A DNA stretch of 64,000 nt from Microbotryum violaceum (lineage: Eukaryota), in assembly GCA_001244265.2 (NCBI GenBank), contig CDLV01000007.1:1984001-2048000 (forward strand), given 5' to 3'. The first letter of the stretch is position 1. Each line of letters opens with the position of its first letter. The notes beneath the pieces were generated by a model, which saw only the letters and a list, made by a program, of their open reading frames with translations, was not told where the DNA came from and did no database searches. Below are positions 2,535 through 45,718 of this stretch, piece by piece. The translations under genes were made by a program, and so were the position numbers.

Positions 2535-3762
2535 GTCACTGGGCCCTCGACTGCAAACCGCGAAGCGACCAAAAACGAACCGGCGACGACAACCAGGACA
2601 ACACACCCTCATCGGCGGCTCAACAACCGAATGTTGGCTATTTCGCCTCCTGCCTGCTCGCTCGCCGCCATCTCCCGACCAACGCCTTCGTCGTCGATTC
2701 GGGCGCCACGACTCACATGGTCGCCGACCGCTCCCTGTTCACGACTTATCGTCCAACGGCACACACCAAGATTGGCGGCATTGCCGGCGGTGTCACGGCC
2801 ATTGGCATGGGGATGTACCGTTTGTTGCCAACACCGGACACCCGATCATGTTGCGCGGCGTTCTGCACGCGCCGGGCCTTCATGTCAACCTTCTCTCCGT
2901 CTCTCGCCTTTGTGACACCGACCGCGTTCGGCTTGCCTTCACCAGCGACGGCATCGACATCACCAAGGACGGCCAGGCCATCGCTCACGGTACACGGGTT
3001 AACGACGGTCTCTACCTCCTGGACGCGGACCACACCAAATGTCAGCAGCTTGCCTTTCTCTCACGCTCTGAGTCTACCGTGCCCCTACTTACCCTCCACC
3101 GCTGCCTCGGCCACCTTGCTCCATCCTCTATACAGAAGATGATCGCTGCGGGTTTGCTGGACGGGTTTGGGGCCGGGTACAGTGACAAAGACGTAGAAGA
3201 GTTTGTTTGCAATGCTTGCCTTGTTCCAAAGGCCATTGTCTTCCTTTTCCCGACTCGGAGTCACATTCCCCGAGAGACTTGGTCTCGTGCACAGCGATGT
3301 CCTGTCGTTTCCCACTCCGTCCTTGACCGGGAAACGCTATCTTGTCACCTTCCTTGACGACCACTCTCGCAAACTTTGGGCATACGCAATCGATCACAAA
3401 AGCGACGTCTTCCCGACCTTCCAGACTTGGCTCGCCGAAGTGGAGTTAGAAACGGACGCGCGTCTACGGATCCTCCGCACCGACAACGGCGGCGAATACC
3501 GATCCAACGCGTTCACGGAGTTCTGCCAGTCCAGGGCATTCGTCGCCAATACTCTATTCCATATACGCCTCAGCAAAACGGCCGTGCCAAACGTGTCAAC
3601 CTCTCCATCGTCGAGGGCGTCCTCGCCCTCCTTGCTGACTCCCACCTGCCGGCCACTTTTTGGGACGAAGCGGCTGCATACTTCGTTTATTGCAAAAACA
3701 GGTGCTCACACTCAGCTTTGGCCAAACAGACTCCACAATTCGTTTGGAACGGCCAACGCACC

Positions 3763-8701
<4,939 letters not shown>

Positions 8702-8981: not shown

Positions 8982-9361
8982 TGTGACAAGTCCACTCTCA
9001 GCTCGGCAGAGGCGCCTCGGTCGGTGCGCGCACCGCTAGCCCGCCCCTTGCGCTGGGGACTTAGACGCGCGCAACTGACTCAGCGCGCCAGCGCCGGGTG
9101 GATCCGTGCGCGTGCCCACTAGGCCGCCCCCTTGCGGTGGGACTTAGGCGCGCGCGACTGCCTTAGCGCGCTAGCAACTTCACCGCGACTGGGCCTATCC
9201 CAGCGCGGGTCCCCTTTCTATTTCTTAGCTTCCCTCTCACCACTTCTGTTCAACAATCGACCTCTCCTGACAGTAGTGGTGATTGTCTCATAGGTATGCT
9301 GAAATAGACCACTTCTGTTCAACAATCGACCTCTCCTGACAGTAGTGGTGATTGTCTCATA
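8982..9361 (+). repeat. Solo LTR, family B (long form)
   Basis: TGTGACAAG...CTCATA with TSD CAGGC at 8977-8981 and 9362-9366. Confidence 0.95.
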
Positions 9362-12063
9362 CAGGCCCCCGCCGCCACACCCGCTCCCGCCGTCAAGACG
9401 AGGACCCCACTAGTAAGGTCGGCGCACATGGACGTCTCATCCCCTCTTGATGATTCTGCCATGAGCGCCGTTGACGTGGCCCAGGGTACACTGGCGGATC
9501 CTTACTTAATTCTACAGATACCAGCCCCTCGTCGTCTCCGTCGCTCGCCCCGATTTCGTCTCCCGCCCCGTCCTCAGGGGGGGTACCGTCCATCGAGGAC
9601 TCGGATGATCCGCTTGACCTTCTGCACTCCGACACCGCGGTTCGCCTCCGCCTGATGGACGTACATCGATCGACGACGACACCCTGGTCACACCCACACC
9701 CGCTGTTGGCCCCGGGCAGCCCTCGACAACGACTCCCCTGATGAGATCGATTTCCTCTCTCGTCATCACCGCGCCTTCATCGCCACCGACGACGACGACC
9801 CCACCCTCGAAGCCATTCAGCCGGTCAAATCGATCACTAGCGACCCTCAGACCTGGCGTGAAGCAATGTCCAGCGACGAGCACGACCTCTGGGCTCAAGC
9901 CGCCTCCGACGAGTTCACCGCCATGCGCGACAATTTCAAGGTGTTCACCATCAAGCCTCGTTCCTCGGTACCACCGGGCGCCACCATCGTCACCTCCAAA
10001 TTCGTCTGGAAGACCAAGCGCAATGCACAGGGTGATATCACAGGGCGGAAGGCACGCCTTGTCGCGCAGGGTAACCGCCAGCGCGACGGCATTGACTTCT
10101 CAGAGACGTTTGCACCGTCGCCCGTTTCTCCTCCATTCGCTGCCTCCTCGCCCTTGCTGCTGCCAACGGCTATCACGTTCATCAGGCTGACATTGACAAG
10201 GCTTACCTTCACGGCGAGCTCGATCACGACATCTGGATGACGACGCCACGAGGTTTTGACTTCCAAGCGACCAGGTTCTCCGGCTGCGGCGCTCGATCTA
10301 CGGTCTTAAGCAGGCCGGTCGCATCTGGAATCGCCACATTGACACATCGCTCAGGAGTCTTGGGTACACGGCAACGGGCACTGATCACTGCATTTACTCT
10401 CGCGTTGATGATCAGAAGCAGCCCCATTATATCGCATTATATGTCGACGATCTCCTCATTGTCAGCCCCGCCCTCGACGAGATTGAGCGTGTCATCTCCG
10501 GCCTCGAACAGCAATACGGCGTCAAACGACTCGGCCCTGCAGAATACATCCTCGGCATCCAGATTCGACGCCTGGAAGACGGCTCCATTGCTTTATCTCA
10601 GGAGCGCTACATCATGAACGTGCTCGCCCGCTTTCACTTTGACACCACAACGCGCGGCGCTACGGTGCCAATGACGCCCGGCCTCTCGCTCACGGCAGTA
10701 CCGGGTCAGGGAACGGACCGCATTTGGTCGTGGTACCTGCAAGCCATCGGCTCCCTCCTATACATTTCACTCGGCACTTGCCCCGACATTGCCTTTGCCG
10801 TCTCGTACCTGTCCCGGTTTGCCAACAACCCGGCCGCCGCCATTGGGTCGCCGTCAAACACGTCCTTCGCTACCTTCGTGCTACGTACCGTGATGAGCTA
10901 CTCTACGCCTGCGGTCCAGCCAAGATTACAGGGGTGGTTGGCTATTCCGATGCAAACTGGGGTGCCTGCGTTGACACGTCAATCTCCACAATGGGCTTCG
11001 TCTTTTACTTGGCCGGCTCCGCTGTCTCTTGGTCATCGAAGCGTCAGACTCGGGTAGCAGATTCCACCACTGATGCCGAATACCTCGCCTTGTCGCACGC
11101 TGGTAAGGAGGCCATTTACCTCACACAACTCCTCTCGAGCTCCATGTTCGCCCAATCGATGCAGCCCACATCTTCACGGACAACGAGGCCGCGGCCGCCG
11201 TCGCCCACGACCCCGTTCGCACCTCCGGCACTCGGCACATCCGTCTCCGCGAGCACTTCGTCCGCGACATGGTCAACCAAGGCGATATATCCCTCTCCCA
11301 CGTTGGCACAGCGAACATGGTTGCGGACCTATTCACCAAAGCGCTAGGTCCCAAGATTTTTGGTACGCATTGCTATGCTCTGGGCCTCCGGACGCAACAC
11401 CCACAGCTCAAGTCTACCTCGCGTTTGCGTGGGGGGGGGTGTGAGGAATCCACTCTCCGCTCGGCTCAGGACTTAGGCGCGCAGAGCGAGCCTGGCGCAC
11501 CGGCCCAGGACTTAGGCGCGCACTTGCCTGGCGCACCGGCCCAGGACTTAGGCGCGCGGAGCGAGCCAGGCGCACACAGCCCCAGGACTTAGGCGCGCAG
11601 GGTGAGCCTGGGCCATTGGCTCAGCCCCAAGGTTCGCAGCCTGAGGACGTGAGGCGCGCGGCTCTCTTGTTGTTAGCTTCCTATTCATCACTCTTGGCTA
11701 TAACTACATTGCTGACGTAGTAGAGTTGATCGAATAGGTATGTTGTAATGATTCATCACTCTTGGCTATAACTACATTGCTGACGTAGTAGAGTGGATCG
11801 AATACCAGCGGACTCGGGCGCGCGCCCGCTAGGCCACCCCCTTGCGGTGGGGACTTAGGCGCGCGCGCCTGCCTTAGCGCGCTAGCAACTTCACCCGCGA
11901 CTGGGCCTATCTCAGCGCGGGTCCCCTTTCTGTTTCTTAGCTTCCCTCTCACCACTTCTGTTCAACATTCAACCTCTCCTGACAGTAGTGGTGATCGTCT
12001 CATAGGTATGCTGAAATAGACCACTTCTGTTCAACATTCAACCTCTCCTGACAGTAGTGGTGA

Positions 12064-16606
<4,543 letters not shown>

Positions 16607-16921: not shown

Positions 16922-19826
<2,905 letters not shown>

Positions 19827-20300: not shown

Positions 20301-20726
20301 GTGGTAAGTCTCTGATCGAAGGACCAAGGGAGACCAGACCAAGAAGTTGCTTGTTACACACCTGCTCAAGCACTACAGTAAGTTACCACATCTAGAGGGG
20401 TGAAAGATGATAGGAAGAGTAGTGCTCACCTGCTCAAGCGGTGGTAAGTCTCTGATCGAAGGACCAAGGGAGACCAGACCAAGAAGTTGCTTGAGCAGGA
20501 GAGAAACCAGAGTGGGGCCATTTGGCTGGGCCCAAGTCAGCCCAGCCAAAGTCAGGCGCACGGACCTGGCCCAGGTGCAGAGACCAGGCCCAGAGTGGGA
20601 GAGCTAAGGTGGTGAAAAGTAGGCCAAAAGTGATCAAAACGAAGAGAGGAGGATGTTGAGGTAGGTACAAGATACAAGAAGGACATGAAGGAGATATTTG
20701 ATCTCACACCCCCCCTACTTCGAGTA

Positions 20727-23700
20727 TCAGGGAGCACAGATACCGAGTCGACCGCGGTGCCGAGCAAAGAGGTCGCGTGACAATGCTTTGGTGAAGATGT
20801 CCGCTGTCATCTCACCAGTGTTGATGTACTGGACGACAATGTCGCCCATGGAAACCATATCCCGGACGAAGTGTTTGCGCAGGCGGATGTGCCGAGTCCG
20901 AGCATGAAATACCGGATTCTTGGTGAGAGCATTGGTGCCTTGGTTGACGCCGTAGATGAGGACGGGCTTTGAAGACGAAAGGCCAAGCTCACCAAAGAGC
21001 TGACGCAGAAAGATTGCCTCCTTACCAGCGTGTGACAGTGCGAGGTACTCGGCGTCACAAGTGGAGTCGGCAACGCGCGATTGAAGCCGGGAGGACCATG
21101 AGACGGCAGCACCTGCATAGACGAAAGTGTAACCCATGGTCGACTTGGAAGAGAGGACGCATGCACCCCAGTTGCAGTCGGAGTAGCCCAAGAGCGGTGC
21201 CGGATTCCCACGAGCGTAGCGTAAGCCGTGAGAAAGAGTGCCAGCGAGGTAACGGAAGGCGTGTTTGACAGCTCCCCAAGCAGCAGCGGAAGGCGAGTGA
21301 GAGAAGCGAGCCAAGTAACCGACGGTGTAAGCCAGGTCGGGCCGAGTACCAGTGGACGCGTACATAAGGGAACCAATGGCCTGCAGGTACCGAGTGCGAT
21401 CCGGGAATGGGGTGGGCTGCAGCTCGACTTCGAGGCGGAGATTGGGCTGCATGGGCGTGGCGACGGGATGGGCATCGGACATTCCAAATCGGGCAAGGAC
21501 GTCCTTGAGGTATTGTTCCTGACTCAGAGAGATGGAACCGTCTGGAGAGCGCCGGATCTGGATGCCGAGGACGTATTCTGCCTCACCGAGCCGTTTGACA
21601 CCATAGCGCTGCTCAAGACCCTGAAGGGTACGCTCAATCTCAGGGAGAGAGGGGCTGATCATGAGCAGGTCGTCGACATAGAGCGCAATGTAGTGGTGCA
21701 CATCACCCGTTGTCCTGACGTAGACGCAGTGGTCGGATTCGGTGGCAACGTAGCCGAGTGCGGACAAGGCAGAGTCAATCTCGTCGTTCCAGATGCGACC
21801 GGCCTGGCGCAAACCATAGAGGGACCGATGCAGTTGGAGGACCTTGCCTGGCATGTAGATGCCATCAGGCACACGAATGTACAGGGGTGCGTCGAGTTTG
21901 CCGTGCAGGTAGGCTTTGTCGATGTTGGCCTGGTGGACGTGGTACCCATGAGCAGCAGCAAGAGCCAGGAGTGCGCGGATGGAGGTGAATTTGGCCACGG
22001 GTGCAAAGGTCTCGTCAAAGTCAATGCCAGAGCGTTGGGAGTCACCACGAGCAACGAGACGGCCCTTGTAGGACTTGACTTGGCCATGCTGGTCGCGTTT
22101 GGTGCGGAAGACAAAGCGGGAGCCCAGGACCTTGGCGTCTGCTGGGACAAGGGACTCGTCAATCGGTGTGAACGCCGAAAAATCTCGCAAGAGTGAGTCA
22201 AACTCGTTGCGGGCCGCAAGACGCCATTCATCCGCTTGAGGAGTGGCCATGGCCGCTCGCCAGTGAGGTGGGTCGCGAGCGGGGGCAATCAGTTCCGCAG
22301 GGTCGGCGGGCGAGGTCTCAATGAGGGCGGCAGCGCCAGAGGCAAGGTAGGCCACGGCAGAGGGTGAGTGGAGTGCGTCATCCACGTCGTCGGGAAACTC
22401 CTGCGCCTGGCATAGCGAAGCAACATCGCGTGGGCGTGGCAGGAGATCGATCGGGTCCGGGGAGTCGGACCGAGCGGGTGAGGGTGGCGCTGGCAACGCA
22501 CGGGAGGCCACGGGGCGCGGGGAAGGACAAGGCGTGGAGATGGCCGAGTCAGAGCTACCTTGGTCAGAGGCGCTTGATGCAGGTGATTCCGGGTCAGGGA
22601 GCTCACGAGCAGGGGAGCCTTGGTCAGGGGCAGGGGGTGCGAGCGAGTCCTGGTCAGGGACCTCGCAGGCAGGGGCGGGACGGTGCGGGCCCTGGTCAGG
22701 GGCTGCCGGCACGGGTCGAGGTGGCTCAGCGCGAGGCGCAAGTGAGCGAGGGGAAGCAACGAGCGAAGGCTCAAGGGGGTCTACCTGGTCAGGGTATGCG
22801 TCAACAGTGACGGGGAGTGGGATTGGTTCAGCGCGAACGTCGGTGGCTGGCCGGAGTGCAGGGAACTCGGATTCACGGAAGACAACATTGCGGCTGAGTT
22901 GTATCCTGCGCGTGGACGGCTCGAAGAGTCGGAAAGCCTTGGCATGGTGGTCAAAACCAACGAACAGGAGGGGTACAGCCTTGGGGTCGAGGTCCGTGCG
23001 CTTGGCCGAGGGAAGGTGGTGCCAAGCGCGGCAGCCAAATGCGCGAAGGGTGGAGATGTCAGGCGCAAAGCCATGCCAACGAGCGTCGGGGATCTCACCA
23101 CCAATGCCGGCGTGAGGCATCAGGTTTTTGCAGTGCACATAGTACAAAGCGGCCTCACCCCAGAGGCGTGAATCAGCGCCAGAGGAGTAGAGCAGAGCAA
23201 GGATACCCTCCTTGATGGTGCGATTGCTGCGCTCAACACGCCCATTTTGTTGGGGTGTGTAAGGGATAGTGAGTTCCCGACGAATGCCTTTGCTTGCACA
23301 GAAGTCAACGAAGTTGCCCAGAGTAAACTCGCCTCCATTGTCAGAGCGGATGGTCTTCACCTTGTTGCCGGTGGCATTCTTGACTTCAAGGATCCAGTCG
23401 CAAAGGCGAGGGAAGACGTCACTTTTGAGTGCCAGGAGGATACACCAGTGCTTGCGAGAGAAGTCATCAATGATGACCAGCATGTACCGATGTCCACCAA
23501 ATGTAGGGCGAGGCATTTGCGCTACATCGACGTGGAGGAGATCCAGACGGCCAGAGGGGATGGACTTGGACCGGGCAAAGGGGAGGGCATGCGCTTTGGA
23601 AGCGAGAGAAGCATTGCAGTAAAAATCCCGGAGCTCCTGATCCTTATACACCCAATCCACCCCAGTAACCAAGCCTTTCTGCACAATGTTTTTGATTTGC

Positions 23701-25059
23701 GCAACGGGCAAGTGCGCGAGGCGACGGTGCAGAGTCAGCAAGGACACTTTGGTAGGGATGGCGAGGAGGGCTTTGGGCGTACAGGGTGTAGGTCCAAGTG
23801 CCAAGGCGTACAGGTTGTTCCCAATGGCTTGAGCGGTAGCAACGACGGCACCCAAGGGACGGGCGATGCTTGCACAACGAGATGCGAAGGAGACGCGGTA
23901 GCCAAGTTGATCCAACTGGAAGACGGACAGCAGGTTGCATGGGAGATCCGGTACCAGGAGGACATTGGACACGGTGATCGGACCCGTTGAAGTCTGGATG
24001 CAAATGGTGCCGCAGCCGGTGGAAGGGAGGGAGCCGGCGACGCCTCCAACTCGTGGGCCTGCGACCGTGCGAAGCTCGGAAAAAAGGCCCCTGTCGTTCG
24101 TCATATGGCAATTAGCGCCCGAGTCAAGGAGCCAAGCCGATTTGCGAAATGGCGAAGGTGTTGCGAGGAGACAGGCCGTGAACGACACAGAGTTGGGTGT
24201 GTCCACTGCGGCTGGTGACGCGACTGGCTGGGAGGCCTTCTTCTCGGCGGTGCGACGAGCTCGGTAGGCGGCGGCCCAGGCGGTGTCGAGGCATTCCGGA
24301 GCCAGTGCAACTTGCGACAAGACGGATTTGGGCACGGCTTTGAACAGCCGTGGCGGGACTGCGGGGTGGCGACGGCGGCAACAGGAGTATCGACGGGGCG
24401 GGCTTTGACATCGCGGTAAAGGCGCGTGAAGATCTCGGTGGCGGAGGGCATCGCAGTGGAATCGCCCTGGTCAGCAACGAAGGTGGTGCGCCAGGCGTCA
24501 AAGGACGAAGGAAGGCGAGCAAGCAAGTGCGAGGCGAGAAGGGCGTTCACGGTGACCTGCGAGTCCTGCAGCAGCCGGGCGTCGTTTTCGAAACTGTCGC
24601 GGAATTGCAGGAACAGGTCGGGAGTGACGGGCACAGGGTCGGAGCTGAAGAGGTGTTGGATGACCGGTAGCAGATCGACAGCAGAGACGGTGCCGTAGCG
24701 TTCGCGAAGTGCCTGCCAGACCTTGGGTGCTGCGAGTGATTCGTCGAGGTAAGGTGACAGGCCCGGGAGGACAGTTTGCGAATCAACGGAGGCGCAAATG
24801 GAGGAGCAGGCGTAGTGGTCCCAGAGAGGGACATACGAAGCAGGCCAAGACTCGAGTGGTACGCCCGTGTTGAGGTAACGGACGACGCCGGAGGCAGGCG
24901 TGAACGGATGGCGAGGACCCAGTCTCGGTAGCCGGACGAATTGCGAAGCAGCTCGGTCGTTGCGAAGGCCGCAGAGTGGGTGGGCGGGCGCAAGGGCGGC
25001 GCATCGGGCGTGGGCTCGCGGAGCTTGGCTTCAGGCGCGGAGGCGCCGGCGTCGGACAT
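20727..25059 (-). CDS. Copia C2 Gag-Pol; pol intact (1202-aa ORF), gag with a few 1-nt frameshifts
   Basis: LLDSGA protease, IRSDNGGEF/PQQNGRVER integrase, LYVDDLL RT and RNase H; gag ATG at 25059. Confidence 0.85.
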
Positions 25060-27126
25060 GTTGCGAAGGGTGAAAAAGTAGAGCGAAGGGCGGGCACGGA
25101 GGTGGCCGCACTGGTAGCTCGGTTGGGCTAATAACCTGTGATGTTGTCACGCCTGCTCAAGCGGTGGTAAGTCTCTGATCGAAGGACCAAGGGAGACCAG
25201 ACCAAGAAGTTGCTTTTTACACACCTGCTCAAGCGGTGGTAAGTCTCTGATTGAAGGACCAAGGGAGACCAGACCAAGAAGTTGCTTTTTACACACCTGC
25301 TCAAGCACTACAGTAAGTTACCACATCTAGAGGGGTGAAAGATGATAGGAAGAGTAGTGCTCACCTGCTCAAGCGGTGGTAAGTCTCTGATCGAAGGACC
25401 AAGGGAGACCAGACCAAGAAGTTGCTTGAGCAGGAGAGAAACCAGAGTGGGGCCATTTGGCTGGGCCCAAGTCAGCCCAGCCAAAGTCAGGCGCACGGAC
25501 CTGGCCCAGGTGCAGAGACCAGGCCCAGAGTGGGAGAGCTAAGGTGGTGAAAAGTAGGCCAAAAGTGATCAAAACGAAGAGAGGAGGATGTTGAGGTAGG
25601 TACAAGATACAAGAAGGACATGAAGGAGATATTTGATCTCACAGCGTCAACAATACTCTATCCCTCGCACGCCTCAACAATACGGTCGGGCGGAGCGGGT
25701 CAATCGTTCCATTGTTGAAGGCATTCTTGCCCTTCTGGCGGACGCCCATCTACCCAAGACATTCTGGGAGGAGGCTGCGGCTTACTTCGTTTACTGCAAG
25801 AACCTGGTTCAACACTCGGCTCTCAACAAGGCAACACCAAACTTGGTCTGGCAGGGCGGACGCACCACAGCCTCCGCGCTTCACCCATTCGGCTGCACAG
25901 CTTGGCTCACGGTCGCGCCCGAACTTCGCTCGAAACTCGACCCCAAGGCGGTTCGCGTTCTCTTCACCGGCTACGACCTGGCTTCCAAAGCCTTCCGTTT
26001 CTACGACACAACGACCAAGAAGATCATTTTGGGCAGAAATGCCAGCTTCCTCGACACTGAATTCCCCGGTTTACTTGGCGACTCCACCGAGGAAGACGCC
26101 GACACGCACTTCGCCAGCGCTCCCATTGCCGAACCTCAAGACACTGTCAAGACATGGACCCCACTAGTAAGGTCGGCGCACATGGACGTCTCATCCCCTC
26201 TTGATGATTCTACCATGAGCGCCGTTGACGTGGCCCCAGGGTACACTGGCGGAACCTTGCTTAATTCTACAGATGCCGAATCGTCCTCATCACCGTCTCC
26301 TGAGCCGCCCTCGTCGCCGTCGCCTGCGCTCTCGACTGCGCCCTCACCGTCATTCCCTGCGTCACCGTCACCCTCGGCCTTGCCAAACGACTCTGAATAC
26401 TCCGCGGATCCTCTCGACCTCATCAGCTCACAGCCCCAGGTTCGCCTCGACCCACCGGGCGTGCATCGCCCCGACTTCGGCAAGTACCGCGAGCCCGCAT
26501 CGGCTGAGGAGTCGCCCGACGAACTCGACCTCATTGGGCGCCACTCTCGTGACGAATCGCCGGACGAAATCGATTTCCTCACCCGACACCACCGCACTTT
26601 CATCGCGACCGACGACGACACCTCTGACACTGAGGCCATCCAGCCAGTCAAGTCCATCACAAGCGACCCACAGACCTGGCGCGAGGCAATGTCGAGCGAC
26701 AAAAGTGAAGTGTGGGCCAGGGCCGCCGATGACGAGTTCAATTCCATGCGCGACGACTTCAAGGTTTTCACCATCGAGGACCGCTCTACGGTACCCACCA
26801 GCGCGACCATCGTCACGTCCAAGTTCGTCTGGAAAACGAAACGGAACGCACTCGGCGAAATCACTGGACACAAGGCACGGTTGGTAGCGCAAGGAAATCG
26901 GCAACGGGACGGCATTGACTTCAACGAAACCTTCGCCCCGGTCGCCCAATTCTCCTCGATACGCTCACTCCTCGCGCTGGCGGCCGCCAACGGCTTGCAC
27001 GTACACCAAGCGGACATCGACAAAGCCTACCTTCACGGCGACCTCGATCACAACATCTGGATGACGGCACCGCGCGGCTTCGACCTTCCAGCGACAAGGT
27101 GCTTCGGCTGCGACGCTCCATCTACG

Positions 27127-32148
<5,022 letters not shown>

Positions 32149-33752
32149 GGATGTATCGCCACCGGTCTTCTCGCTCGTCGCCGCCAGCTTTGCACCAACT
32201 CTTTTGTCGTTGACTCGGGGGCAACCTTGCACATGGTCTCGGACAAGTCGCTGTTCACGACCTATTGCCACATCGCTCCGACAAAGATTGGAGGCATTGC
32301 AGGGGGCATCAACGCCATCTGAACGGGAAACATCGCCTTCGTTGCCGCCTCGGGCCATCCGATCACGCTCACTGGCATGCTGCACACTCCCGGCCTGTTC
32401 GTCAATCTCCTCTCGGTCTCTCGACTTTGCAACACCGACGACGTCCGTGTTGCCTTCACAAAACACGGCATTGACATCAACAAAGACGGCAACAACATCG
32501 CTGAAGGCACGAGGCTCGACGAGGGACTCTACTTGCTCGACGCTGATCATTCCAAATGTCAGCACCTTGCTCTCCTCTCTCGTTCACAGTCTTCCGTGCC
32601 CCTGCTGACTCTCCACCGCTGCCTCGGCCATCTCGCACCGTCGTCCATACAGAAGATGGTTGCCACTGGTTTGCTGGAGGGTCTCGGGGCCGGATATAGT
32701 GACGAAGAGGTAGAGAAGTTTGTCTGCAATGCTTGCCTCAGTGCCAAGGGCCATCGTCTTCCTTTTCCCGATTCGGATTCGCACTCCTCCGAGAGACTCG
32801 GCCTTGTGCACAGTGATGTGCTTTCCCTCCCCGAGCGGTCCTTGACTGGCAAACAGTACCTTGTCACGTTCCTCGACGATTACTCCCGCAAACTCTGGGC
32901 CTACGCAATCGGACACAAAAGCGAAGTGTTCGGCGTGTTCAAGACTTGGCTTGCCGAAGTCGAACTCGAGACGGGTGAAACATTGAAGGTCCTCCGAACC
33001 GACAACGGTGGCGAATACCGTTCGAAAGCGTTCACGGATTTCTGCAAGGCACGCGGCACACGCCGACAATACTCTATCCCTCGAACACCTCAACAGAACG
33101 GTCGTGCAGAGCGGGTCAATCGTTCCATCGTCGAAGGCGTGCTTGCGCTTCTTGCGGACGCACACTTACCCAAGACATTCTGGGAGGAGGCCGCAGCTTA
33201 TTTCGTATACTGCAAGAATATGTGTCAACACTCGGCTCTCGACAAGGCAACACCGAACTCGGTCTGGCAGGGCGGACGCACCACAGCCTCCGCGCTTCAC
33301 CCGTTCGGCTGTGCGGCTTGGCTCATGGTCGCGCCCAAACTTCGCTCTAAACTCGACCCGAAAGCGGTTCGCGTTCTGTTCACCGGCTACGACTTGGCTT
33401 CCAAAGCCTTCCGCTTCTACGACACTACAACAAAGAAGGTCACCCTGGGCAGAAATGCCACCTTCCTCAACACCAAATTCCCCGGTTTATGTGGCAACTC
33501 CGCCGAGCCAGACAATGACACGCACTTTGCCAGCGCTCCCTTCGCCGACCCTCAAACCACCGTCAAGTCATGGACCCCACTAGTAAGGTCGGCGCACATG
33601 GACATCTCATCCCCTCTTGATGATTCTTCCATGAGCGCCGTTGACCTGGCCCCAGGGTACAATGGCGGATCCTTACTTAATTCCACAGATGCCAAATTGC
33701 CCGCGTCACCGTCACCTGCGCCGTCCTCGTCACTGTCTCCTGAGCCGGCCTC
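32149..33752 (+). mobile_element. Internal copia B fragment (PR-IN)
   Basis: VVDSGAT and LRTDNGGEY motifs; in-frame stop near 32320; bounded by LTR ends of other elements. Confidence 0.85.
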
Positions 33753-38849
<5,097 letters not shown>

Positions 38850-41800
38850 TTGTCCGTGAAAATGTGAGCCGCATCGACCGGGCGAACGTGGAGCTCGGAG
38901 AGGAGTTGTGTAAGGTAAATCGCTTCCTTACCAGCATGCAACAAGGCGAGGTATTCGGCATCAGTGGTGGAATCTGCTACCCGAGTCTGACGCTTTGATG
39001 ACCAAGAGACGGCGGAGCCGGCCAAGTAAAAGACGAAGCCCATTGTGGAGATTGATGTGTCAACGCAGGCACCCCAGTTCGCATCGGAATAGCCAACCAC
39101 CCCTGTAATTTTGGCTGGACCGCAGGCGTAGAGTAGCTCATCACGGTACGTAGCGCGAAGGTAGCAAAGGACGTGTTTGACGGCAACCCAATGGCGGCGG
39201 CCGGGTTGTTGGCGAACCGGGACAGGTACGAGACGGCAAAGGCAATATCGGGGCAAGTGCCGAGTGAAATGTATAGGAGGGAGCCGATGGCTTGCAGGTA
39301 CCACGACCGAATGTGTTCCGTTCCCTGACCCGGTACTGCCGTGAGCGAGAGGCCGGGCATCATTGGCACCGTAGCGCCGCGTGTTGTGGTGTTGAAGTGA
39401 AAGCGGGCGAGCACATCTATGATGTAGCGCTCCTGGGATAAAGCAATGGAGCCGTCTTCCAGGCGTCGAATCTGGATGCCGAGGATGTATTCTGCAGGGC
39501 CGAGTTGTTTGACGCCGTATCGCTGTTTGAGGCCGGAGATGACACACTCAATCTCGTCGAGGGTGGGGCTGACAATGAGGAGATTGTCGACATATAATGC
39601 GATATAATGGGGCTGCTTCTGATCATCAATGCGAGAGTAAATGCAGTGATCAGTGCCCGTTGCCGTGTACCCAAGACTCCTGAGTGATGTGTCAATGTGG
39701 CGATTCCAGATGCGACCGGCCTGCTTAAGACCATAGATTGAGCGCCGCAGCCGGAGAACCTGGTCGCTCGGGAAGTCGAAACCTCGTGGCGTCGTCATCC
39801 AGATGTCGTGATCGAGCTCGCCGTGAAGGTAAGCCTTGTCGATGTCAGCCTGATGAACGTGATAGCCGTTGGCAGCAGCAAGGGCGAGGAGGCAGCGAAT
39901 GGAGGAGAAACGGGCAACGGGTGCGAACGTCTCCGAGAAGTCAATGCCGTCGCGCTGGCGGTTACCCTGCGCGACAAGGTGTGCCTTCCGCCCTGTGATA
40001 TCACCCTGTGCATTACGCTTGGTCTTCCAGACGAATTTGGAGGTGACGATGGTGGCGCCCGGTGGTACCGAGGAACGAGGCTCGATGGTGAACACCTTGA
40101 AATCGTCGCGCATGGCGGTGAACTCGTCGGAGGCGGCTTGAGCCCAGAGGTCGTGCTCGTCGCTGGACATCGCTTCACGCCAGGTCTGAGGGTTGCTAGT
40201 GATCGATTTGACCGGCTCAATGGCTTCGAGGGTGGGGTCGTCGTTGTTGGTGGCGATGAAAGTGCGGTGATGACGAGAGAGGAAATCGATCTCATCAGGG
40301 GAGTCGTCGTTGGAGGGCTGCCCGGGCCAACAGCGGGTGTGGGTGTGACCAGGGTGTCGTCGTCAGATCGATGTACGTCCATCAGGCGGAGGCAAACCGC
40401 GGTGTCGGAGTGTAGAAGGTCAAGCGGATCATCCGAGTCGTCGATGGACGGTCCCCCGGCTGAGGACGTGGCGGAGACGAAATCGGGGCGAGCGACGGAG
40501 ACGACGAGGGGCTGGTATCTGTAGAATTAAGCAAGGATCCGCCAGTGTACCCTGAGGCCACGTCAACGGCGCTCATGGCAGAATCATCAAGAGGGGATGA
40601 GACGTCCATGTGCGCCGACCTTACTAGTGGGGTCCTCGTCTTGATGGCGGGGGCGGGCGTGACGGCGGCGTCTGGCGTGTTGGCGGTGTCAGGCGCTGGC
40701 GCGTCGGCAGGAATGACAAACTGGCGTTCGGTGTCGTCCGCAACAACGGGCGTGTTGACTGGTAGGCCGGGGAAGTCGTCGTTGAGGAAGGTGGCATTTC
40801 GGCCAAGCACAACCTTGTTGGTGGAATGGTCGAAGAACCGGAAAGCCTTGGAGGCGAGGTCGTAACCAGTTGAAATCATGCGCGCGGCCTTGGGGTCGAG
40901 CTTGCTGCGAACGTCCGGCGCGACCGTGAGCCAGGCCGCGCAGCCGAACGGGTGAAGGGCGGTGGCCGTGGTGCGTTGGCCGTTCCAAACAAATTGTGGA
41001 GTCTGTTTGGCCAAAGCTGAGTGTGAGCACCTGTTTTTGCAATAAACAAAGTATGCAGCCGCTTCGTCCCAAAAGGTGGCCGGCAGGTGGGAGTCGGCAA
41101 GGAGGGCGAGGACGCCCTCGACGATGGAGAGGTTGAAATGTTTGGCACGACCGTTTTGCTGAGGCGTGTATGGAATAGAGTATTGGCGACGAATGCCCCT
41201 GGACTGGCAGAACTCCGTGAACGCGTTGGATCGGTATTTGCCGCCGTTGTTGGTGCAAAGGATCCGTAAACGCGCGTTCGTTTCTAACTCCACTTCGGCG
41301 AGCCAAGTCTGGAAGGTCGGGAAGACGTCGCTTTTGTGATCGATTGCGTATGCCCAGAGTTTGCGAGAGTGTTTGTCAAGGAAGGTGACAAGATAGCGTT
41401 TCCTGGTCAAGGACGGAGTGGGAAACGACAGGACATCACTGTGCACGAGACCAAGTCTCTCGGGGAATGTGACTCCGAGTCGGGAAAAGGAAGACGATGG
41501 CCTTTGGAACCAAGGCAAGCATTGCAAACAAACTCCTCTACATCTTTGTCACTGTACCCGGCCCCAAACCCGTCCAGCAAACCCGCAGCAATCATCTTCT
41601 GTATAGAGGATGGAGCAAGATGGCCGAGGCAGCGGTGGAGGGTAAGTAGGGGCACGGTAGACTCAGAGCGTGAGAGGAAGGCAAGCTGCTGACATTTGGT
41701 GTGATCCGCGTCCAGGAGGTAGAGACCGTCGTTAACCCGTGTACCGTGAGCGATGGCCTGGCCGTCCTTGGTGATGTCGATGCTGTCGCTGGTGAAGGAA

Positions 41801-43423
41801 AGCCGAACGCGGTCGGTGTCACAAAGGCGAGAGACGGAGAGAAGGTTGACGTGAAGGCCCGGCGCATGCAGAACGCCGCGCAACGTGATCGGGTGTCCGG
41901 TGTTGGCAACAAACGCTACATCCCCCATACCAATGGCCGTGATACCGCCGGCAATGCCGCCAATCTTGGTGTGTGCCGTTGGACGATAAGTCGTGAACAG
42001 GGAGCGGTCGGCGACCATGTGAGTCGTTGCGCCCAAGTCGACTACGAAGGCGTTGGTCGGGAGTTGGCGGCGGGCAAATAGGCAGGAGGCAACATATCCG
42101 ATGTTCGGTCAGTGAGCCGTGGAAGAAGACAAGTCGTCCTGGGTGTCGTCGCTGGTACGTGTCTGTTGGCCCCGGTTCTTGCAGTCGAGGGCCCAGTGAC
42201 CTCGCTTTTGGCAGCGGCGGCAGGGGCCGGTGGGCGGATGCTTTGCACGTGAAGTGCAGTCGCGCAGGCGGTGGCCGGGGCGCGGCAGGTGGGGCAAGAG
42301 GGGGCGTCGGCGAGCATGGCCAAATGCGAGGCCGAGAGGCCGGCGGATCGGAGCTGAACGCGGATACGGTCCGTTAAGGTCGTGAGCTCCGGGAGTTCGC
42401 GCTGGGCGCGCTGCTCGTCCGTGAACGTTAGCCGGAAGCTGTCTAGGCAGGACGGTACCATGGCGAGGATGTGGGTGGCGAGGACGTCGTTCAGCAATGT
42501 CTTGGCGTCGCGAATCTCTTGAGCAATGGCCATGTATTCTCGCAGCCAGGTGTCATAGGCCTCGACCGAGGCGGGCATCTTCCGAAAGTCCCAAAGGCGG
42601 GCGAATAATTTGAGGGTGCGAGTGGCGTCGTTCGGTGCGAAACAAGCTTTGAGTGCGGCGAAGATGCGTGGCGCCGACAGGTCGTCGCTTGGGATGGCGT
42701 CGAGGGTTGCTGAGACGTCGGCGGAGTCGATCGAGCCGACAATAATTTCCCGCGCGGCGTTGTCACGAGCGGCCAGCTGGTCGGCCGTCCACGTTGGGGG
42801 AACGACTCCATCAAGGACGTAACCACGAATCTGATTCGGAAGCGTGAGCCGGAGCTGGCGTAACCAGTTCGTGAACGACTTGGAGCCGTCTAGGCGAGCG
42901 TGCTTGGGAAAGACGACTTTTGATGCGGTGGTGGCGGCGGCGGCGGCGGCAGTGGGCTGCGAGGCAGCGGCGGCAGAGGCGGTGGCGGCAGGGGGCTGCG
43001 AGGCAGCGGCGGCAGGGTGCTGCGAGGCCTGCAGAGCGGCGAGCTGGGCCTGCAGGGTAGCGAGTTGATCGCTGATCGAAGACGCAAGAGGGCTGGGGTC
43101 CCTGGGGGACGAAGGCGTGGTGGGGTCGCTACTGTCCATTGTGCGATGGTGCGATGGACGTGGGCGGCTCGAGTGGCTGGGCTCGAAGAAAAATGCGAGC
43201 AAGCGGCGGGCTGGTAGCTCGTTGGGCTTATAACCTATTCGATCAACTCTACTACGTCAGCGATGTAGTTCTAGCCAAGAGTGATGAATAGGAAGCTAAC
43301 AGTGTGAGAGCCGCGCGCCCCAAGTTTCCCAGGCTCGCTCCGCGCGCCTAAGCCCTGGGCCGGTGTGCCTGGCTCGATCCGCGCGCCTAAGTCCTGAGCC
43401 GAGCGGAGAGTGGATTCCTCACA
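38850..43423 (-). mobile_element. Copia element A2, 3'-truncated in RNase H (5' LTR 43236-43423, short form)
   Basis: PBS GGTTATAAGCCC next to 43235; gag ATG at 43139; PR, IN, RT and partial RNase H ORFs. Confidence 0.9.
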
Positions 43424-45718
43424 AGAAGTGGCCAAGCTGGTTCTCCTGGCACCAATCCGGAACTCTGCCGGATCCTCCGCACCCACATGGTCTCGTTGCT
43501 GGCTGGCTGGTTGGACCTCTCCCTCGAGAAGCTTGCCCTCGACGCTCCGGTGGTCCCTACCAGTCCGGAGGCCGCTGAGGTTTTTAGTGACGCACACACG
43601 GACCAACCTCTCGAGTTCGATTACCAAGTCTTTGAGAGGATTGGTCGCGAGGAATGGAGCGTCATTGCGCAGCGACGCCAAGCCATTGCGACCCAGGCAG
43701 TGTGCTACAACAGCGCCCCACGTACTCGCGACCCGCTGCAGCCTTGGCTGCACCCCACGTTGCGACAGCTGCTACCGGCCATTCCCCGATCACGGGTGGC
43801 CCCCGCCCCGTTGCCCGACTCACCGTCGACGAGCGCGCGTACCTGGACCAGAACCACGGATGCTATCGCTGCCGCACTCTCAACGCCAACCACATCTTGC
43901 GCAACTGCCCCCGCTACTTGTCACCCATGGGAGCGTCCGCCACTCCGTCGACGCCAACGTTGACCGCTCCTGCGCCTCGCCCCGGGCCCCGTATGGTGGC
44001 GGCCATTCGGACCTTCCAAGAAACTGGCGATTCAACCGTGTTCGACGGCCTCAGCAGCGACTCGGAGGACGACAACGATCCTTCGTACACACCGCATCCC
44101 TTTCCCCCTTACCCGTCTCCCTAGCCGGCGCTCATGGTACTCTCCTTGCCTCCGCCCTAGTCAATTTGGGATCGCCTCAAACATTTCTCAGTGAGGAGCT
44201 TGTTCAGCGACTGGGTTTGGAACGGCGCGCCCTGGAACAGCATTCGAAGTACACCCTTGCAATGCAAACCCAAGTCCCCACTGTCTTCACCTGCACGCAC
44301 TTTGTTCGAGTCCCGCTCGAGCTGGCCAATGGGCTCTGGGCCGCAGGACCGACGTACGCCGAGGTAGCGCCCCTTGGGAAGGACCTTGCAATCATCTTGG
44401 GAGGCAACTTCATCTATCGGCACAAGATGGAGGTCGGCCTCTTCCCTCAGCCACACCTCACCTGCAAAGCCAACCCCATACACGCTATAGACCTGCTGGC
44501 GCTGTCGTCCCAGCCGTGCACTGCCGTGCGGGTTGCCGCAATTGCTCCGGTTTCTGACGACGAGGAGCAGCTCCGCCTTGCCGCGCTTGACCATCGCCTT
44601 CGAGCGGAGTTTGCCGACCGTTTTCCTGTGGATATCCCGCCTGTACACTCGTACCAATCCCGGTGCGACACCGTATTGAGCTTGACACTCTGTCCACTGT
44701 TGTCAACCTTCAAGGATACTCCCTCCCGAAGAAGTATCGCGAGGCATGGTACTTACTACTACAGGAACATCTTGCGGCCGGTCGCCTCCGCCCCTCTTGG
44801 TCGGCATACTCGTCACCCTCGTTCATCATCCCAAAGAAGGGCCGACGTGGATCCCACGATCGCCCCGCGCTGGGTGAACGACTACCGCGAGCTCAACAAG
44901 CACACCATCAAAGACCGCACGCCTCTGCCCTTGATGGACAACATTCTCTCAACATGCTCCAATGCGCAATTCTGGGCCAAGATTGACATGACCAACTCCT
45001 TCTTTCAGACCAAGATGGCGGAGGAAGACAGCCATAAGACGGCCGTGTCCACACCTTGGGGTTTGTACGAATGGACCGTCATGCCCATGGGCCTCTGCAA
45101 TGCCCCTGCCACCCACCAACAACGTGTCAACAAGGCGCTCCAAGGCCTGCTTGGCACCATCTGCTTCGTCTACCTCGACGACATCACCATCTTTGCGGAT
45201 ACACTGGAGGAGCACGAGGCCCGTGTTCGCCAAGTCCTGGATGCGCTGCGCCGTGCCAAACTCTATTGCTCGCCAACCAAAACCAACCTTGCCACTGCGG
45301 AGTGCTTGTTCCTTGGCCACATCATCAACCGAGCCGGAGTACATCATTGAAGACATTGTTGACGAGAGGATCCGTGCTGGCAAGCAGCAATACCTCATCT
45401 CGTGGCTCTCATGGCCATCAGACAGCAATTCATGGGAGCCTGCCGAGGCACTGGAGGATACGGAGGCATTGAATAGGTGGGAGCGTCGGAACGAGTAGGA
45501 TTTTTGACCGGAGGAGGGGATTTGTTTCAAGGCGGGGAGAGTGTAAGGCGCGCGCCTTACTACGGGCCACAGGGATTAGAAATAGAGATCGCGCGCACCT
45601 AGCTTCTTCAGTTCCCTCCCCATTGGGCTGACACCAGAAGCTAGTTGCAATCCATATAGCTTGCACCTGTCAGCTAGGTCGCCAGTGAGGCTCGAGAGCA
45701 ATCTCGTGCCTTTCAACA
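43424..45718 (+). mobile_element. Degenerate chromodomain Ty3/gypsy (chromovirus) remnant: gag 3' end, PR, partial RT, chromodomain, PPT and probable 3' LTR
   Basis: CYRC...H...C knuckle; PRWVNDYRELN, MPMGLCNAP and YLDD RT motifs; chromodomain YIIEDIVDER...YLISW...SWEPAEAL (45336-45498); purine tract then TGTAAGG at 45542; LTR end ...CAACA at 45718 is tentative. Confidence 0.85.

Follow-up and report, generated by a model that had tools for sequence, protein, structure and literature searches.

The linker between integrase (IN) and reverse transcriptase (RT) in two copia families of Microbotryum violaceum contains a near-invariant block of 118 nt, which is confirmed here as a real feature. 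With moderate confidence we interpret it as a structure-gated optional spliceosomal intron (intron 2) together with 16 upstream bases, held constant by selection at the RNA level and belonging to a two-intron scheme. Removal of intron 1 (95 nt, located after the protease, PR) would create a stop codon at the joint and yield Gag-PR, removal of intron 2 (101 nt) would shift the frame and yield Gag-PR-IN with a short tail and without RT-RH, and retention of both introns would provide the full Pol and the genomic RNA. We infer that the spliced RNAs are translated, and likewise the function of the structure and the purpose of the arrangement, which may be to provide more IN than RT or to provide less RT.

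The window, i.e. the whole analysed stretch of 64,000 nt, consists in its bases 1-45,500 of a nest of LTR retrotransposons. The families A, B and C show the copia domain order and the Pfam domains Pol_BBD, gag_pre-integrs, rve, SH3_retrovirus and RVT_2; they are Ty1/copia LTR retrotransposons with the order PR-IN-RT and an RVT_2-type RT, and families A and B have the single-ORF design in a Microbotryum-type fungus. The best 120 of 261 protein homologues all belong to Microbotryum saponariae, M. silenes-dioicae and M. intermedium. In RT, family C shares about 65% identity with A and B. The studied block is carried by a fragment of sub-lineage B' whose left end is cut by a family C element and whose right end is cut by a B LTR:

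25644-27126, forward strand: copia fragment of sub-lineage B' carrying the studied block (end of the IN core, SH3, linker, start of RT)
26156-26273, forward strand: near-invariant block, 118 nt, defined by alignment, fourfold sites and 128 copies
26167-26172, forward strand: donor GTAAGG of the preliminary description (106-nt cut), conserved, without an observed joint
26260-26272, forward strand: branch-site motif CTTAAT, with the variant CTTAAC in 6 of 128 copies, followed by the acceptor CAG

The adjoining family C element (20301-25643, minus strand) has 408-bp LTRs that are 99.5% identical, indicating a young insertion. The copia nest is bordered by a decayed gypsy-type fragment (RVT_1; 43398-45500, forward strand), which precedes lower-GC host sequence. 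A Pfam search with 10 ORF pieces from the host side returned no domain. Furthermore, a 69-nt GT..AG segment, the tail of which repeats the preceding 57 bases, was noticed at an LTR end (27442-27510, forward strand), with further copies near 9294 and 12006 and, on the minus strand, at 8470 and 19996; it lies outside the stretch covered by the read contigs described below.

The preliminary description had placed seven copies of the block in the window, and all of them were recovered, those at 6086, 36082 and 40517 on the minus strand, which it had left unstated. They align nearly letter for letter over 26156-26273. As it had also proposed, positions 26167-26272 comprise 106 nt from GTAAGG to CAG with the branch-like motif CTTAAT, and the Pol frame stays open through the block when it is retained (ORF 25624-27294). 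Genome-wide (33 Mb, 20 contigs) 192 matches to the first 25 bases of the block were found, and none to the reversed control. We examined 132 copies (60 top-ranked loci, 69 exact matches to the first 25 bases and three more window copies), a sampling that understates the variation in 26161-26185 due to the exact 25-base match. The 128 complete copies share 92.4-100% identity with the studied copy (median 96.6%); the other four (L100, L121, L123 and L125) are interrupted, three of them by an LTR-like insert and L100 by an AT-rich, possibly mitochondrial-like stretch.

The claimed near-identity across the families holds throughout, the block being 95-100% identical to the studied copy in 60 of 60 loci, while family A shares only 68-79% identity with it in the fully aligned IN and RT segments. 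The flanking linker, described earlier as unalignable between A and B, is indeed poorly alignable, yet part of its columns can be aligned at 57-70% identity. The conserved stretch stops at most 2 nt from the acceptor, and the only recurrent changes in the branch motif among the 128 copies are T/C exchanges at its last base.

A scan of synonymous sites revealed constraint at the nucleotide level. Comparing 30 family A loci with the studied copy, 698 of 702 fourfold-degenerate sites are identical in the block (99%), as against 757 of 1566 in IN and 775 of 1794 in RT (43-48%); for 14 main-B loci the corresponding numbers are 322 of 336, 673 of 851 and 699 of 1035. Since the copies in these counts are related and not independent, lineage pairs give the fairer view, and one such pair agrees at 23 of 25 sites in the block versus 44 of 115 in the IN core. 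Just before RT, at about 35580-35820 on the minus strand, the synonymous identity of A and B is raised a second time, though less strongly (14 of 16 fourfold sites). Conservation of the encoded peptide, for instance as an integrase tail motif, could be considered given that the Pol frame is open through the block and that the peptide is near-invariant in the gene models of the three Microbotryum species named above. However, most of the common block variants alter the amino acid at a first codon position (26197, 26212, 26254, 26266) while the synonymous sites are frozen, and peptide constraint is therefore rejected as the sole cause and appears extremely improbable as the explanation of the block.

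Exchange of segments between the families at the block, as suggested in the preliminary description, does occur. Lineage D (L080, L081, L082, L102) is an A/B mosaic that switches at the block, its IN side being 81-89% identical to A and 69-72% to B, and its downstream side 83-87% to B and 58-76% to A; its branch motif is canonical and ends in C. The gene models of M. saponariae show a similar A/B mosaic and seem to switch back near 35580-35820. The crossovers at the block in lineage D and in six B/B' mosaics among the 132 copies could point to template switching or gene conversion alone as the source of the identity, the splice sites then being cryptic. A single recent recombination tract is excluded, though, by ten diverged lineage representatives (five A-type, two D and three B-type) which share the block at 92-99% while their flanks are 57-96% alike. 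Lineage D itself differs by 11-19% from A upstream and by 13-17% from B downstream, but by only 3-7% in the block. Moreover, in both families the models of M. saponariae and M. silenes-dioicae encode a near-identical peptide that differs chiefly at the hairpin loop, the end of the conserved tract coincides with the acceptor, and the tolerated changes cluster in loops. Taking into account that exchange takes place at the block and yet only the block stays constant, selection is needed; repeated exchange without it is unlikely as the cause, and we consider homogenisation alone quite improbable.

Evidence for splicing was sought in contigs from 4 of 13 listed sequencing runs, runs with a small share being left unused, aligned to the B copy at 34080-38600. 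No run recorded as RNA contains the stretch; the RNA status of the runs X1, X2 and X3 is guessed, and X3 carries an organism code that differs from that of the other three runs. Only two of 15 joint rows, both in X3, which contributed five rows, have CT..AC ends, corresponding to GT..AG on the sense strand of the element. One of them, at 36083-36185, skips 101 letters with 59 letters on the shorter side and two ambiguous letters, which fit an AG|GT...AG| cut of 101 nt; a 106-nt cut would give none. Beyond the acceptor, at 36067, the spliced contig accounts for the entire X3 depth (14.3 of 14.3). The other joint, at 37119-37215, skips 95 letters without ambiguous letters, as predicted for intron 1. 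An 876-nt joint in X3 (36800-37677) was rejected as splicing, as it has no GT-AG register and a 7-nt direct repeat, and presumably represents a deletion or an artefact.

The earlier proposal of an intron is thus supported by a GT-AG joint at the predicted acceptor, but its donor and length are not borne out by that joint, the observed donor being the AAG|GT located 5 nt downstream and the intron 101 nt long instead of 106 nt. A joint of 106 nt was absent from the contigs of the four runs, contigs being prone to drop rare forms. Gene models that splice at the block mostly use the 106-type donor and in few cases the 101-nt donor; these models are predictions and were given no weight as evidence. 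One of ten M. intermedium gene models reads through a diverged block in which Thr replaces the Ser codon bearing the 101-nt donor, so that this donor would be missing there and only the upstream one could remain. Signals of the U2 type (GT donor, branch motif, YAG acceptor) are present, the 101-nt donor deviating from the consensus at +3.

Neither joint was found in the three runs other than X3; X1 and X2, likewise guessed to be RNA, provided unspliced contigs that span intron 1 as well as the donor of intron 2. For each intron the splicing is seen in one contig from one run of one study, with the skipped letters marked as not known. The genome contains no copy of the joined 101-nt form (192 unspliced matches) or of the joined intron 1 form (203 unspliced matches), and the search for the joined 106-nt form returned a single unrelated match with two mismatches. 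Altogether the case for splicing is specific but thin, and the case from the sequence is strong.

Transferred from the observed joint or identified by sequence, intron 2 and the stop codon following it are located as follows:

26172-26272, forward strand: intron 2 of the studied copy, 101 nt, AAG|GT...CAG|, position transferred from the joint at 36084-36184
36084-36184, minus strand: intron 2, B copy showing the joint in the X3 contig
6088-6188, minus strand: intron 2, B copy, by sequence
9418-9517, forward strand: intron 2, A copy, 100 nt (C run shorter by one C), by sequence
14491-14590, forward strand: intron 2, B copy, 100 nt, by sequence
33588-33688, forward strand: intron 2, B copy, by sequence
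40519-40619, minus strand: intron 2, A copy, by sequence
26301-26303, forward strand: stop codon 9 codons past the 101-nt joint of the studied copy, by sequence

None of the window copies has an AG between the branch motif and the acceptor. The expectation that splicing removes RT is borne out for family B, where in 28 of 30 loci the 101-nt cut shifts the frame into a hydrophobic tail that ends at a stop within 9-17 codons. The Arg/His/Pro-rich product predicted earlier finds no support, as it belongs to the unobserved frame of the 106-nt cut (204 codons here). Stops follow within 21-29 codons in 15 of 30 family A loci, and the frame continues for at least 44 codons in the other 15, mostly re-entering the Pol frame at indels. 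Based on these reading frames the product of intron 2 splicing would be Gag-PR-IN without RT-RH. Downstream of intron 2 the B linker contains three copies of an acidic motif, xxD[PE][LI]D[LF][LI] (about 26400-26580, forward strand), and family C contains one (near 22460, minus strand). The motif would be lost from the spliced integrase and is a candidate host-binding or targeting motif.

Intron 1, between PR and the IN zinc finger, was identified in seven copies, and a candidate in family C lies at the homologous place:

37120-37214, minus strand: intron 1, 95 nt, B copy with the X3 joint, forming TAA after PR
41599-41693, minus strand: intron 1 of family A with the same ends and TAA joint, by sequence
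28901-28995, forward strand: further copy, by sequence
3041-3135, 13462-13556, 19318-19412 and 32558-32652, forward strand: further copies, by sequence
23679-23782, minus strand: candidate intron 1 of family C, 104 nt, with a predicted joint forming a stop

Its removal joins T with AA to a stop directly after PR in all seven window copies found (7 of 7). Both of its ends are retained by 20 of 30 A loci and by 23 of 30 B loci, and the remaining loci mostly do not extend over this position. The ends of the family C candidate are kept in 30 of 30 loci, and the codon after the acceptor starts with AA or AG, so that TAA or TAG is the predicted joint in all 30, among them the loci of a subfamily with about 74% protein identity. 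Intron 1 therefore appears to be an optional intron that would stop translation before IN and give the structural protein, the translation being predicted. Only 8-12 of about 22 fourfold sites of intron 1 are identical between A and B, and since its interior varies to this extent, splice signals alone seem to need no frozen interior. The linker of family C was also searched for a frozen block, without success; all that is kept there is a short donor-like motif (22790-22779, minus strand; 8 of 8 loci shown, across subfamilies). This motif is possibly the counterpart of intron 2.

The three helices named in the preliminary description are predicted in the isolated block. The whole block folds modestly better than shuffled sequences (z -1.7; reverse strand z -0.7), and its central hairpin P2 alone reaches z -5.0 against 300 shuffles, this window having been chosen after the fold was seen. 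The predicted elements are:

26174-26224, forward strand: central hairpin P2 with the apical stem 26191-26207, covering donor positions +3 to +8
26166-26173 with 26254-26261, forward strand: donor-branch stem P1
26157-26174, forward strand: hairpin P0, 4 bp with a 10-nt loop and a centred 6-nt palindrome (26163-26168)
26234-26252, forward strand: small hairpin P3, forming together with P1

The robust part of the fold is P2, whose probability is at least 0.9 in 14 of 14 copies folded alone and in 12 of these 14 when the longest flanks are included. The pairing of the donor with the branch region, central to the earlier description, depends on the context: P1 exceeds 0.5 in 8 of 14 copies alone, but in only 3 of 14 with the longest flanks. 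P0, the 3' strand of which contains the 101-nt donor, is predicted to be mutually exclusive with P1. It is absent from the isolated block and exceeds 0.5 in 0 to 10 of 14 copies depending on flank length (6 of 14 at the longest). In either fold, P0 or P1, the 101-nt donor is predicted to be paired. A weak donor that is paired in P2 plus P0 or P1 would make retention of intron 2 the default, and the structure would set the spliced share.

Among the 15 sites with substitutions in at least 3 of the 128 copies 11 are unpaired, 3 keep the pair and 1 breaks it, so that 14 of 15 agree with a pairing model which was derived from one of the same copies. C-to-T changes retain G-U pairs regardless of selection. 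The covariation check detected no two-sided compensatory change in the 128 copies, the variation being too low for power. An Rfam search gave no match (best E 0.3, far below the gathering score), and the search for long-range pairing of the block with the rest of the A or B element returned only 11-nt matches, none common to both families. A central polypurine tract was rejected because the sense strand has no purine run, and a metagenome scan with a 20-base motif yielded two matches, both bacterial and due to chance, their resemblance being confined to the motif.

The interior of the block is frozen to a degree that intron 1 does not require, which makes a second role of the block likely, a dimerization or packaging signal being the main candidate. 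The block might even be primarily such a signal within pol, splicing either clearing it from translated RNAs or being incidental; two RNAs would pair through the palindrome in the loop of P0, and a loop shared between the families would allow them to co-package and recombine. This would agree with the frozen stretch starting exactly at the start of P0, with the formation of P0 in 10 of 14 copies at one flank length, with the preservation of its palindrome in 161 of 165 matches, with the mosaic structure of lineage D, which changes type at the block, and of the M. saponariae models, and with the lack of spliced DNA copies in the genome. However, copies lacking intron 1 are also absent although they could retain the block, and six-base palindromes occur at 74 of 5101 positions of the B element, so that two in 118 nt are close to chance. 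Furthermore, P0 comprises only 4 bp and is missing from the isolated fold, and the M. intermedium model implies one broken pair in it. The retroviral dimerization signal (DIS) and PAL1/PAL2 of Ty1 resemble the predicted P0 in placing a palindrome in a hairpin loop just upstream of a splice donor, but they are located in the 5' leader and have been shown experimentally, while P0 is predicted, AU-rich and situated in mid-pol (PMC12789967, PMC6844567). Its loop also lacks the GC dyad given for retroviral signals in the relevant section of a review (PMC12789967). We regard a primary packaging role as unlikely, albeit worth keeping in mind.

An alternative starts from the genomic setting. On each contig the listed block copies are grouped in a single cluster. 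According to a preprint, 77-94% of the centromeric transposable elements of the genus Microbotryum are Copia and Ty3 (10.1101/2022.08.03.502670). The block-bearing clusters may be centromeres. A weak, folded intron might act as a silencing signal, its slow splicing feeding RNAi or heterochromatin, and be kept because the repeats are located in such centromere-like clusters. The spliced RNA would have an early stop and a long 3' tail, and a review describes weak introns in fungal transposon RNA, i.e. the cryptic intron of Tf2 in S. pombe and SCANR in Cryptococcus (PMC7175516). There, however, the intron serves silencing by the host, while here it is conserved by the element lineages. Freezing across diverged lineages requires selection on replicating lineages, for which self-silencing is a poor fit, and this explanation appears very improbable.

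Under the favoured reading as a structure-gated optional intron, an extended version can be envisaged in which the two introns give three outputs and intron 2 is in addition a two-state switch: a kissing loop would hide the donor and mark the RNA for dimerization or packaging, splicing would destroy the loop, the shared loop would permit co-packaging and recombination of the families, and the spliced integrase would lose acidic motifs that may steer insertion into centromere-like regions. Taken as a whole this version is rather unlikely.

The product of the Drosophila copia subgenomic RNA includes the protease. As described in a study of EVD and other Arabidopsis Ty1/copia elements, which cites the Drosophila case, this RNA resembles the situation here in that splicing leads to an excess of structural product, but it arises from one intron of about 3 kb spanning pol instead of two short ones (PMC5580714). 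The Arabidopsis elements themselves show optional splicing conserved in position across families with a frameshift to a new stop; their splicing is focused on the protease domain and linked with early polyadenylation, and the sections of that study available mention no IN-RT intron (PMC5580714). Here intron 1 follows PR and intron 2 follows IN. The closest parallels to the single-ORF design are provided by BARE1 of barley (Ty1/copia), with a short (104-nt) optional GT-AG intron, an early stop and a spliced form absent from the genome (PMC3735527). Its single intron is situated at the start of PR and yields Gag only, in contrast to the elements studied here, in which intron 1 follows PR and another intron separates IN from RT. 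The intron of BARE1 is also described as U-rich, and a frozen hairpin is not mentioned in the portion of the paper available (PMC3735527). The rice centromeric element CRR also drops rt by splicing, creating two ORFs, but belongs to the Gypsy superfamily and has another gene order (PMC3735527). Splicing in Ogre restores Pol rather than ending it (PMC6317226), an Arabidopsis transcript atlas contains spliced Gag isoforms and antisense RNAs (10.1101/2024.04.02.587720), and Tca2 of Candida has been read as stop-codon bypass, splicing being thought unlikely (PMC2194720). Our literature search, mainly of open papers without supplements, found no report of copia splicing in Microbotryum and no copia intron between IN and RT.

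Knowledge of how protein balance is controlled in single-ORF copia elements comes largely from plants and flies; in these a single splice leads to the structural protein. The present data extend this scheme to a fungus, with a stop formed by the joint in three families (predicted in families A and C), and add a splice that would separate integrase from reverse transcriptase. The block also marks a recombination point of diverged families within the repeat clusters. With its 118 nt it offers a small, defined target for asking if splicing is gated by RNA structure and if mid-pol can accommodate a packaging signal.
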